From UHGV virus genome UHGV-1729168: a DNA stretch of 13,353 bases. One strand, 5' to 3'. A program made the position numbers. Below are positions 1 to 3,000 of this stretch, piece after piece; position 1 is the first letter of the stretch; each line of letters opens with the position of its first letter. Source of the DNA: a virus.

Positions 1-3000
1 CCACTACCTGCGAAACAAGCAGACCAAAGAGTTCTTAGCCGAGCTGGAGAAAAACCACGAATCTGTGGTTTTTACTGAGCGCGGTGTACACGGTGGAACA
101 TATGGCGGGAAGTTTGTTGCTTATGATTATGCAGCATGGCTAAACCCCGGATTTAAATATGCAGCCTATAAAGTCCTGGATGACTACTTCACCGGAGAAC
201 TCCAGCATCGCAACAGCTTAAGTGCGCAGCTCAATATGAAGTGTCATGAGTTTGATCAGAAAAAAGATATGGCGAGCTTCTGCGGGCAAGGCCTTGCGGC
301 ATGGCGCTACACGAAACCTGGTTTGATCGCTGAGATTAACTCCCTGGCTAACCAGTTGCAGATCACAATCCCCGGGCTTCCGGGATGAGTGATCGTGTCA
401 TTGAATGCGCCTCCAGAGCGGGGCGCGACTTCTCAGCGTTCATGAAAGGCGAGAAGGGCGTGATGGAAGCATTGGCCTCGGTGGATGAGTTTGGCGAGCA
501 GTTGCGCCTCAACGGCTGTGTCAATCATCACTTTGTCAGCTACATGATGCGGAACTCGATCATGCAGGCATTCATGGACATGGCAAAAGCCGAGAAGAAA
601 GAAAAGCGCCGGTGTAAGCGAGCGGAAGCAAAAGCGAAGTAGCCATTACAAAGCCCATCTACTGGTGGGCTTGATAATGGCTTATACCCTGCACGGGATA
701 ACTTAACTGATATCCTTTTTAACGGATAAAGGTATTCAAGCCTGACATATCATGCGCTGTATCGTCGCCGTATTCCCGCATTAACCATGACCGCAGCCCG
801 ACCGGGAGACTCCTCTGCGCGAGTGTGCGGGGATAATCAAAAACGATACACACCGGGGTTTACCGCGTTAACGGAGCGCGGCGTTGTCCCCTCATGGTCG
901 CTGGTCCGGTGCGATGGTGGAAGAAACCGGACGATGTGTTACCTCGCAAGCTCTGTTATGTCATGTGTCTGATTTGTGATTTAAGTCGGATAATTGTCGT
1001 TGCCATTAAACAGAGGATTGATGACCGACAGGGTGGCATTGTTAGAATAAGACTTATTCTTATCTGTGCCGGGAATGAAAATGAAAAGAAATCTTCCGTT
1101 AATTATTTTGTTGTCTTCTCTGGTTATGGGCTGTACGCAACATAAAACAGATATGCCCCGACAGTTGGTTAAGGCATTACCACAATATCCGGCCTATGCA
1201 GCGGCAAATTATATAAAGGGACGGGTTGATGTGAAGTTTGATATTGGTGCTGATGGTACTGTCACCCGAATTGAGTTTATCCGTTCAGAGCCGCACCATT
1301 TGTTTGATGAGCAGGTTGTAAAGGCGATGGCAAAATGGCGATTTGAGAAGGACAGGCCGTGTAAAGGCGTGAAGAAAACGTTTATCTTTAGTCCTTCTGC
1401 ACCCTGATTATTTCATCAGAAATTAATTATCACTCTGTTGTTATTCTGTACATCCCGGCAGGGTAAGTCTTGTTCCGTCGGATATGAAGATGAAATATTG
1501 TTGGAGGACAGTGGGTACCTGCTCCTGTAACCGAACGTTCATTTCTCGTTATTTTTCATGCTGGCCGGGCGCAGATGCGTTGCATCTGTTGCCAGCCTTC
1601 TCCTGCAGGCTTCAATAACCCACGCTGAAAAGTTACCGGACCCTTTATGCTCAAGGGCGATGTTGATCTGTTCAATTATGTGATTGGGGAAACGGATATT
1701 GCGGGTTGTGGTTCTGCGGGTCCGGTTTTTCGATGACATATTTATTTCCTTTACTGATTGTCATATGACGGGGATTTTACATGGCTGAGCTTCGTACACT
1801 CCAGAGCAGAATCAAAACACTGAATACCCGACGGGTGAATATTCTGAAGGGGGAACAGCGTCGTGTCAGTGGCAGTGCACGTGTTTCCCTCAAGCGTCAT
1901 ATCTGGCTCAGGGACGCCGGGCAGTGCTGTATCTGTGGTCGTGTGGTTGACCTCTGTGACAGTGAACTTGATCACCGAATTGCACTTCAGTTCGGTGGTG
2001 GTAATGAGGAGACGAATCTCTGGACGCTCTGTACCGAATGCCATCGACAAAAGTCTGCTCGTGAAGCGGCGGGTGGTATGCCGGACCCGACGCTGCCGGA
2101 GGTGTCCGGAGGTAGTGGCAGAGCGGACGACATCATCGGACTGTAACCCGACCCGGGGGGGGGGATCATCCGGCGTAAAAAACGATCGCTTTGGACACCG
2201 CGCCCCCTCTCACGCAGAGAAAAAATTCCCGTTTCAGGGCAGTTAACATGTTAACTGGCTGCCCGGGCATTTTTGCGGTTTTTATCTTTATTATTCAGTT
2301 TGTTGTGCGGAAAAAATGTTAACAGGCTTTTTCAGCAAATGTTAACCAGGCAGCAGTTAACATTTGCGGCATGAGACGCCGGGAAAAATGGGCTGAACCA
2401 TACCCGGCTGAGTGCGTTCTGGACCCGGGAGGAGGCTGTGCTGACAACGCAAAAACGAAAATTTGCGCTGGCGCTCATGTCCGGGAAAAACAAAACAGCG
2501 TCAGCCATTGCCGCCGGTTATTCGGCGAAGACCGCCAGGGTTAAAGGCTCGCAGCTGGCAAAAGATCCGGAGGTGCTTGCGTTTATAGCCCGTAAACAAT
2601 GCGAGACGGTGGAGGTGGATGAGGTTCCTGTTTACCGGCAGAAAAAATCAGAGCAGGAGGATAAACCCCGTCGCCGTGAGGCGGCTGCAATACCACAGCC
2701 GGACGAAAACAATCCGGAGATGCCACCGTCCGCGGTGATGTCTCCTGGTATTGAATATATGGAGGATGGTCTTCCCGATCCGGTGAAAGCCATGGGGCGG
2801 ATCCTGGTGGAAAACCTCTGCATTGATCCGAAACTGGCACTGGATGCGGCCTGGCGTCTGGCGCAGTTCACACACCATAAAAAAGGCGATGCCGGTAAAA
2901 AATCGGCAAAAGGTGATGCCGCGAAAAAAGCGGCTAACCGTTTTGCGGTACCACCACCACCACGACTGGTGGTGAATAACGATAATGAGGGCAACGGATG

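Follow-up and report, generated by a model that had tools for sequence, protein, structure and literature searches.

A perfect 17-bp palindrome over the likely extended −10 promoter of a prophage TonB_C lipoprotein gene, with the right arm missing from an expressed sister allele

The window analyzed here, a stretch of 13,353 nucleotides of the virus genome UHGV-1729168, carries a small lipoprotein gene with a TonB C-terminal domain, and a perfect palindrome lies over the −10 element in front of it. An earlier note on this DNA saw in this arrangement the layout of a repressor operator, which would place the gene under a host or phage regulator. The question raised by the locus is whether the palindrome is such a regulatory site or a by-product of the promoter sequence in one allele of the gene. 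We found no paper on the palindrome or on the regulation of the gene, and the relevant published data are limited to an expression table for LF82 and the genome announcement of phage 21.

The gene belongs to a moron cassette in the late region of a lambdoid prophage and occurs in three alleles, A (the one in the window), B, and C. The features of the cassette are as follows:

932–1584, plus strand: moron cassette, 653 bp, defined by comparison with phages that lack the gene
1081–1407, plus strand: TonB_C-domain lipoprotein gene, 108 aa, with a signal peptide containing an LVMGC lipobox and a Pfam TonB_C match (E = 1.3e-14)
1071–1074, plus strand: Shine–Dalgarno sequence GGGA for the ATG at 1081, read from the sequence, with GGAAT kept in alleles A and B

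Stx phages lacking the moron align to window positions 600–931 and 1585–2440, with an unrelated 246-bp filler between the two, and the right junction of the cassette rewrites the 3′ end of the adjacent DUF3950 gene. A full-length TonB_C gene is present in 414 of 5,426 complete E. coli genomes, and RefSeq genomes label positions 1081–1407 “TonB family protein” with the same start. The true start codon is likely the ATG at 1081, which is the choice of the NCBI annotation pipeline (PGAP) and the sole start codon common to all alleles; the in-frame ATG at 1075 is missing in alleles B and C and in certain allele A haplotypes. No regulator gene was found within the cassette. The neighboring DUF3950 protein was considered as a regulator and rejected, given that it has no relative of solved structure, occurs in phages without the moron, and is absent from the contexts of alleles B and C. 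The upstream region of the DUF3950 gene itself has a different palindrome.

The palindrome and the promoter elements around it are located as follows:

1044–1060, no strand: perfect 17-bp palindrome AGAATAAG-A-CTTATTCT (8+1+8), centered on A1052
1040–1048, plus strand: extended −10 element TGtTAGAAT, from a promoter scan, kept in the other alleles
1021–1026, plus strand: weak −35-like hexamer ATGACC with a 16-nt spacer, from the same scan
1055–1056, plus strand: predicted transcription start, 7–8 nt past the −10, from promoter geometry
985–996, plus strand: second conserved upstream island GTCrGATAATkG, lying ~50 nt before the −10 and kept in all three alleles

Positions 1044–1060 read AGAATAAGACTTATTCT, and direct reading together with a palindrome scan confirmed the perfect inverted repeat of the earlier note, which ends at 17 bp because T1043 and T1061 are unpaired. 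Its placement over the extended −10 was likewise borne out by the promoter scan; the palindrome overlaps TGTTAGAAT (1040–1048), with bases 2–6 of the −10 hexamer forming the first five bases of the left arm, and would span about −12 to +5 around the predicted start. The distance to the start codon, previously given as 15 bp, needed correction, as the palindrome ends 20 nt before the ATG at 1081 and 14 nt before the in-frame ATG at 1075.

The scanned promoter (1021–1048; ATGACC, 16 nt, TAGAAT, with an upstream TG) matches the consensus at 9 of 12 positions and contains the best sigma-70-like site upstream of the lipoprotein gene. It has the form of a sigma-70 extended −10 promoter, with a TGn abutting a TAnnnT hexamer and a weak −35 tolerated, while the consensus match alone is not significant (three sites in the region vs. 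2.5 expected). Extended −10 promoters usually need little from the −35, and base 1024 is A, G, or C across allele A haplotypes, so the −35-like hexamer is probably of little importance. When the two other alleles were aligned with allele A, the extended −10 ranked among the top two non-coding islands for conservation; the block ATTGTYAGAATAAGAC is identical at 15 of 16 positions between alleles A and B, with scrambled flanks. The extended −10 is TGTCAGAAT in allele B, and in allele C the −10 is TAAAAT in register, with a TG one base off the extended −10 register. Conservation thus supports the extended −10 as an apparently real promoter of the moron, and the expression support comes from allele B, whose gene in the LF82 prophage Perceval reportedly reaches 8-fold in lysogens relative to the prophage background (PMC9928086, Table 1). 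A scan of positions 600–1900 for intrinsic terminators found nothing terminator-like, and the stem of the palindrome is A/U-rich (−2.8 kcal/mol).

At the scale of the whole window, the palindrome is unremarkable. In these prophages, a perfect palindrome with arms of 8 bp or more turns up every 9–10 kb or so (four per 36 kb and five per 50 kb in two related prophage regions); the window itself carries two, and Markov-1 shuffles give 0.46 per window, with at least one in 37% of shuffles. For a perfect 8+1+8 dyad within the 152-bp upstream region, P is ~0.005 by local resampling and ~0.015 at the empirical palindrome rate, both values being before correction for the post-hoc selection of the site by its reader. 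A search of viral contigs for the 17-mer returned the moron itself, one unrelated phage lineage (apparently in coding sequence), and scattered single matches, with no recurrence at other phage promoters.

Among the 115 allele A loci, the palindrome is intact in 109, six carry the variant C1059T, and in four T1061A lengthens the symmetry to 9+1+9 (19 bp). The right arm varies at one of eight positions among allele A haplotypes, compared with four of the 20 positions that follow it, and therefore no extra constraint is seen on it. The allele A copy that has diverged furthest (L007, 88% protein identity) has an unchanged palindrome and a single change in the 43-nt block 1038–1080, against a divergence of 16% upstream and 11% in the coding sequence (P ~0.02); mosaic recombination could also give this conserved block. 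Three truncated or chimeric copies (L011, L012, and L291) were uninformative for the comparison of alleles.

Allele B, with 72% protein identity to allele A, is found at 78 loci (phage 21, LF82 Perceval, and 76 further loci) and lacks the following segment:

1054–1068, plus strand: TTATTCTTATCTGTG, missing from allele B in the A/B alignment, with allele B a net 13 nt shorter

This segment contains seven of the eight right-arm bases, such that allele B retains ATTGTCAGAATAAGAC without them. Allele C, known from a single contig, is 72% identical to allele A over 438 aligned bases of upstream region and gene. Within the 17-bp palindrome it differs from allele A by seven changes (41%), every one a transition and three of them among the eight right-arm bases; a protein site common to both alleles would be expected to be better conserved. 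In place of the palindrome, allele C has a diverged quasi-palindrome in the same register, with six of eight Watson–Crick pairs and two double changes. Exhaustive enumeration indicated that seven random transitions retain symmetry of this kind 7–12% of the time, and so the symmetry of allele C is only weak evidence. The search for more diverged alleles gave nothing beyond A and B in a metagenome scan. Of two allele C-specific patterns, the 21-nt one had no matches and the 14-nt one only random matches without the gene, and a BLAST search of complete E. coli genomes with the upstream region of allele C returned no matches. A scan of genome contigs yielded one short contig with allele B, labelled Modestobacter (probably contamination).

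The explanation we tentatively prefer, at a little under even confidence, is that of a real palindrome on a genuine sigma-70 extended −10 promoter, the symmetry of which is an allele-specific by-product and not a conserved regulatory device. The promoter would let the TonB_C lipoprotein moron be transcribed independently in the lysogen. The left arm consists of the −10 hexamer and the first discriminator bases, and would be retained in every allele because it is the promoter, while the right arm would be the beginning of the transcribed region, forming a perfect complement in allele A only. The match of the right arm is probably due to chance in A/T-rich DNA or to template switching at a quasi-palindrome, an established mutational mechanism in E. 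coli. Template switching would match both arms without selection and is a candidate origin of the palindrome, which presumably binds no protein.

An operator is possible but not favored, and we consider it rather unlikely. On this account, a dimeric repressor from outside the cassette, most likely host-encoded, would bind from about −12 to +5 and block RNA polymerase, with allele A conditionally expressed and allele B a constitutive deletion variant. The perfect symmetry, the classic repressor position over the −10 and start site (a dyad within −35 to +10), and the low local chance (~0.005–0.015) all argue for it, as do the invariance of the site in the diverged copy L007, the partial dyad symmetry that allele C still has in register, and the natural extension of the dyad to 19 bp by T1061A. 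However, the −10 element accounts fully for the left arm, the right arm is dispensable in allele B, the half-site bases of alleles A and C are not the same, and C1059T is tolerated in six loci. Of the earlier operator claim, the dyad over the −10 and start holds, while the conditional expression under a repressor drawn from it is unsupported, the right arm being absent from an allele that is both widespread and expressed. With sister alleles lacking half of the palindrome and one of them still expressed, a repressor switch is therefore possible but unproven. Nor was a matching regulator found for it, the cassette having no regulator gene of its own and CI/Cro being excluded for this prophage. 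Scans with a set of consensus sequences (Fur, the 7-1-7 form of Fur, DeoR, RcsAB, ArgR, CRP, Zur, Lrp, and LexA) gave nothing beyond half-site or chance-level matches, and outside this set an uncharacterized host regulator is possible. DeoR, RcsAB, and Zur gave half-site matches only: the 16-bp DeoR palindrome TGTTAGAATTCTAACA matched at 10 of 16 positions, in the left half only; the RcsAB/RcsB box TaAGaatatTCctA, with a 4-bp inner spacer, at 10 of 14, where an RcsAB-like TAAGA...TCTTA can be read but with a spacer one base too long; and Zur at 15 of 23, in one half only. Iron regulation is very improbable. Here, Fe-Fur would bind GATAAGAATAAGTCTTATT (minus strand, 1046–1064) and link the TonB_C gene to iron, for which the TonB connection would be thematically plausible. 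The Fur match, put at about 11 of 19 positions in the earlier note, is at best 13 of 19 to the 19-bp consensus GATAATGATAATCATTATC, made up of three NATWAT hexamers (12 of 19 on the other strand), a score reached at only 5 of 26,670 window positions. The partial resemblance lies within local chance, as Markov resampling of the surrounding A/T-rich sequence reaches 13 of 19 in 2.7–7% of cases. Moreover, the consensus is mismatched at positions 7, 13, and 19, which we take to be the G/C bases contacted by Fur in the Fur–DNA structure, the three hexamers are all NATAAG and not NATAAT, and the box is not conserved in the orthologous promoters (at most 10 of 19 in allele B; 12 of 19 in allele C, but elsewhere). 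An operator of the prophage’s own repressor, being 17 bp with a central base, has a negligible probability in our estimation. Lambda-type CI/Cro operators are 17 bp with a central base pair, and the length and odd-numbered symmetry of the palindrome resemble them. However, in the SCU-104 prophage (a 36-kb region, L015, 100% identical to the window over window positions 880–1480), the CI–Cro intergenic (OR) and OL-side regions have TGTTAC/GTAACA-type repeats unrelated to the palindrome, which has no second copy within three mismatches in that region, and this candidate is effectively refuted for this prophage type. The cassette is also found in phages of different serotype backgrounds and Stx types, and a match to one immunity specificity is therefore unlikely. 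With Fur and CI both weakened as explanations, annotation of the palindrome as a regulator site would first need experiments.

The symmetry has also been considered at the RNA level, a reading we regard as improbable, in which a stem-loop (7 bp, 3-nt loop) on plus-strand read-through transcripts (e.g., from the late promoter pR′) would influence how stable the moron message is or how it is processed or translated. Across five allele A haplotypes and allele C, each of the 42 cells of the seven pairs is pairable as RNA, with two double changes and two G–U wobbles (one of them C1059T), compared with 40–69% in slid controls, and adding the outer pairs GCAU/GUGC brings the fold to −7.3 kcal/mol (z = −2.3). 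However, the core hairpin is very weak in allele A (−2.8 kcal/mol, z = −1.05), has −1.8 to −2.3 kcal/mol with z ~0 in allele C, and is absent in allele B. The covariation depends on one allele C sequence and is equaled by 23 of 500 shuffles (p ~0.05–0.12 overall), and 7–12% of random transition sets retain all pairs. With the start predicted at ~1055–1056, the left arm would be untranscribed from the moron promoter. An Rfam search of the element gave no family match. An extension of the operator idea to two regulatory alleles, with A repressible via a 17-bp host operator and B (phage 21, Perceval) constitutive after a 13-nt deletion, appears doubtful to us. If true, lysogens would differ in the timing of display of the TonB C-terminal-domain lipoprotein, which might be a decoy against TonB-dependent phages or colicins.

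The analysis defines the moron promoter, a likely true start codon, and the cassette boundaries, and tells three alleles apart. Were the dyad an operator, the host would control a widespread accessory gene of prophages, and the natural alleles that have or lack the site would provide a ready genetic test. The TonB-like product itself may affect TonB-dependent uptake. We regard the palindrome as ordinary for as long as neither a transcription start nor a binding protein has been mapped.

Like bor and lom of lambda and the “moron” of HK97 and HK022, the TonB_C moron is a single accessory gene between the lysis and packaging genes, with a G+C content of 37–45% in the gene vs. ~50–55% in the flanks and its own sigma-70-type promoter, a sister allele being expressed in the lysogen. 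In contrast to lambda bor, which is oriented against late transcription, it is oriented with it, and it also differs from lambdoid morons in that no intrinsic terminator was detected after the gene. In allele B phages, the TonB_C moron adjoins bor/iss.

The palindrome itself can be set beside several known types of site. With the Fur boxes at iron-uptake promoters, including that of tonB, it shares an A/T-rich dyad of 7-1-7-like geometry over the −10 and start, but it differs in its NATAAG hexamers and in a match not conserved in sister alleles. Unlike lambda-type CI/Cro operators, it is single-copy and lies outside the immunity region. In the E. coli deo operon, the DeoR operators O1/O2 (TGTTAGAA-TTCTAACA) overlap a TAGAAT −10, and have in common with the moron both TGTTAGAAT(A) and a palindrome over an extended −10; however, the symmetry center of the moron palindrome lies 5 bp further downstream, and DeoR requires multiple distant operators, which were not seen here. 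The quasi-palindrome template-switch sites of E. coli differ in that, for the moron, the ancestral state is deduced from three alleles only and the switching event itself is putative, but they likewise are short, perfect or near-perfect inverted repeats with a spacer of 1–3 nt, and the differences between alleles A and C include paired changes on both arms, as expected from template switching.

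The window comes from a lambdoid, Stx-phage-type prophage and covers its late region, with the genes in the following order:

Upstream end: end of the spanin/lysis region
1081–1407: TonB_C lipoprotein gene
1539–1739, opposite (minus) strand: DUF3950 (YlcI/YnfO) gene
Next: HNH endonuclease gene
Downstream: small and large terminase subunit genes

The TonB_C gene product matches Pfam TonB_C (E = 1.3e-14) and, in PHROGs, falls in phrog_1267 (E = 7.7e-43), whose label 'Rz-like spanin' was probably assigned by position, not by function. Its likely start is ATG 1081, as in the RefSeq annotation of the TonB family gene (MKRNLPLIILLSSLVMGC...), with a suitably spaced ribosome-binding site (GGGA, 1071–1074); an in-frame ATG upstream, at 1075, is missing in the sister alleles. 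Phages without the gene align to 600–931 and 1585–2440 of the window, with an unrelated 246-bp filler between, which places the moron cassette at 932–1584. At its right edge the cassette changes the DUF3950 gene at the 3′ end, where the last ~15 codons are replaced by the junction at 1584/1585. Among 5,426 complete E. coli genomes, 414 have a full-length copy of the moron (96.7–100% identity), as do 7 phage records.

From position 1040 the window reads TGTTAGAATAAGACTTATTCTTATCTG, within which 1044–1060 (AGAATAAG-A-CTTATTCT) is a perfect 8+1+8 inverted repeat by both direct reading and palindrome scan. The earlier note was thus right about the palindrome and about its overlap with the extended −10, which is conserved between alleles; its spacing of 15 bp to the start codon becomes 20 nt when counted to ATG 1081. 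The promoter scan returned ATGACC-16-TAGAAT with an upstream TG at 1021–1048 (9 of 12 positions matching); given three promoter-like matches in the scanned region versus 2.5 expected from shuffles, the consensus match by itself is no proof of a promoter.

A palindrome of such length is no rarity. Shuffled versions of the window (Markov-1) hold 0.46 on average (at least one in 37% of shuffles), the window has a second at 2240–2257, and two related prophage regions carry four in 36 kb and five in 50 kb. It is the location that lowers the chance probability: a palindrome falls within the 152-bp upstream region with P ~0.0045 by resampling or ~0.015 by the empirical rate, both before correction for post-hoc selection. 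The second palindrome (18 bp, perfect, CAGTTAACATGTTAACTG) lies in the intergenic stretch that separates the HNH gene from the small terminase gene and has a 22-bp counterpart in the prophage of strain SCU-104 (GCCAGTTAACATGTTAACTGGC, L015:34021–34042); as it is kept in moron-less phages as well, it may be related to cos or terminase recognition. The DUF3950 and HNH genes diverge, and the 10-bp perfect palindrome between them (GTCATATGAC, 1760–1769) might serve in local regulation.

Protein and context searches showed that the cassette exists in three versions. Allele A, that of the window, was collected from 115 loci, all in the HNH/terminase-small-subunit context and carrying the palindrome. 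Allele B (72% protein identity; 78 loci in a lambda Nu1-type context adjoining bor/iss) includes phage 21 and the LF82 prophage Perceval, while allele C, present on one contig only, has protein identities of 84% to B and 71% to A. Upstream of the gene, alleles A and B are scrambled except for the following:

985–996: non-coding island, GTCrGATAATkG
1038–1053: non-coding island, ATTGTYAGAATAAGAC
Before the gene: ribosome-binding site plus start codon

Allele B (...ATATTGTCAGAATAAGACCCGTAGGAATAAAAATG) keeps the extended −10 and five more bases and is without TTATTCTTATCTGTG, which holds seven of the eight bases of the palindrome's right half, or right arm; this arm is specific to allele A. In the LF82 study (PMC9928086, Table 1), LF82_160 of Perceval ("TonB fragment"), confirmed here by sequence as allele B, is listed as expressed in the lysogen grown overnight in LB, at a level 8-fold above the background of the prophage. 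Conservation and expression together indicate that TGnYAGAAT behaves as a real lysogenic promoter that works without the right arm. The upstream region of allele C is alignable with that of A and its leader is A-like in length; the long leader common to both suggests that allele B lost 13 nt.

The island at 985–996 is kept upstream of the moron in all three alleles and is preceded by TGTGA-N6-TCGGA, resembling CRP half-sites, with its centre ~72–73 bp ahead of the predicted start; the whole stretch (975–996) might bind an activator or act as a further promoter element. The copy of allele B in the classical phage 21 (L412:907–1233; OL657228 41842–42168), beside a bor/iss homologue, and a 'partial tonB-like' copy annotated in EDL933's O157:H7 prophage CP-933N, which the phage ev017 annotation mentions, are handy experimental material. 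As seen at L015:26642–27070 and L015:6418–7137, the SCU-104 prophage, which carries this cassette and is integrated beside ompW and ~3 kb from host tonB, also has a 'TolA' fragment gene in the slot that follows the Q antiterminator and the tRNA genes; two morons with envelope domains in the same phage may merit attention.

As to the function of the symmetry, we infer, tentatively, that it has no regulatory role. The left arm would be the promoter itself, and the right arm the first stretch of the transcript, its match owed to chance or to template switching that homogenised a quasi-palindrome. Within allele A the sole variable palindrome position is C1059T (6 loci), and T1061A (4 loci) extends the dyad to 9+1+9; variation comprises four positions in the 20 nt after the palindrome and roughly ten in the upstream spacer and −35 region. 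In variability the right arm (one of eight sites) cannot be told from the adjoining sequence; the −10 accounts for the left arm. The most diverged allele A copy (88% protein identity) has one change in 1038–1080 against divergence of 16% upstream and 11% in the coding region (P ~0.02); this conserved block reaches well past the palindrome and could also have arisen by mosaic recombination. In register with the palindrome, allele C has the quasi-palindrome AAAATAG-AGC-CTGTTTT (L219:823–839), differing at 7 of 17 positions, all transitions, and conserved no better than the aligned upstream region plus gene (72% identity). Its dyad is partly kept, with six of eight Watson-Crick pairs (as RNA, seven of seven with one G-U) and two double changes affecting both arms. 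Exhaustive enumeration of seven random transitions kept all seven RNA pairs in 12% of cases, the same with at least two double changes in 7%, and at least six of eight DNA pairs in 12%; this retention in a single sequence is a hint, not evidence.

An operator for a putative repressor, as the earlier note proposed, we consider less likely than this, and Fur would account for only a little of its share. An immunity operator can be dismissed here: the CI–Cro intergenic region and OL side of the SCU-104 prophage, which is identical to the window over 880–1480, carry TGTTAC/GTAACA-type repeats, and no second site within three mismatches occurs in its 36 kb, which excludes such an operator for this prophage. 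The Fur-box resemblance, put previously at about 11 of 19 positions, holds as a partial match and is better than estimated at 13/19 (GATAAGAATAAGTCTTATT, minus strand, 1046–1064). Resamples of the local A/T-rich sequence reach that score in 2.7–7%, the mismatches include positions 7, 13 and 19, and the match is not conserved across sister alleles (B, 10/19; C, 12/19 at a different place). The consensuses for DeoR (10/16), RcsAB (10/14) and Zur (15/23) match in one half only, essentially the TGTTAGAAT −10 context; none of the tested transcription-factor consensuses matches convincingly. Membership tests likewise rejected the palindrome as a CI/Cro, DeoR or RcsAB site and as an intrinsic terminator. 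A search of phage sequences found no recurrence of the 17-mer at other phage promoters, and the moron cassette holds no regulator gene. The adjoining DUF3950 gene occurs in moron-less phages too and is missing from the allele B and C contexts; its product resembles a ribbon-helix-helix DNA-binding protein by eye only (RNIRFPNHIIEQINIALEHKGSGNFSAWVIEACRRRL), with no relatives among solved structures. Less probable still is a weak RNA hairpin on read-through transcripts from upstream, in which this stretch can fold into a 7-bp stem closed by a 3-nt loop (−2.8 kcal/mol; adding the outer pairs gives −7.3, z = −2.3). The corresponding structure in allele C reaches −1.8 to −2.3 (z about 0), the site has no Rfam match, and from the predicted start at ~1055–1056 the left arm lies outside the transcript, which leaves the leader unstructured. 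What likelihood is left falls to further readings, nucleoid-associated proteins binding the site being one example.

Were the dyad functional, it would amount to a promoter-occluding operator of an ordinary kind. The element here works in the same manner as lambdoid moron promoters.
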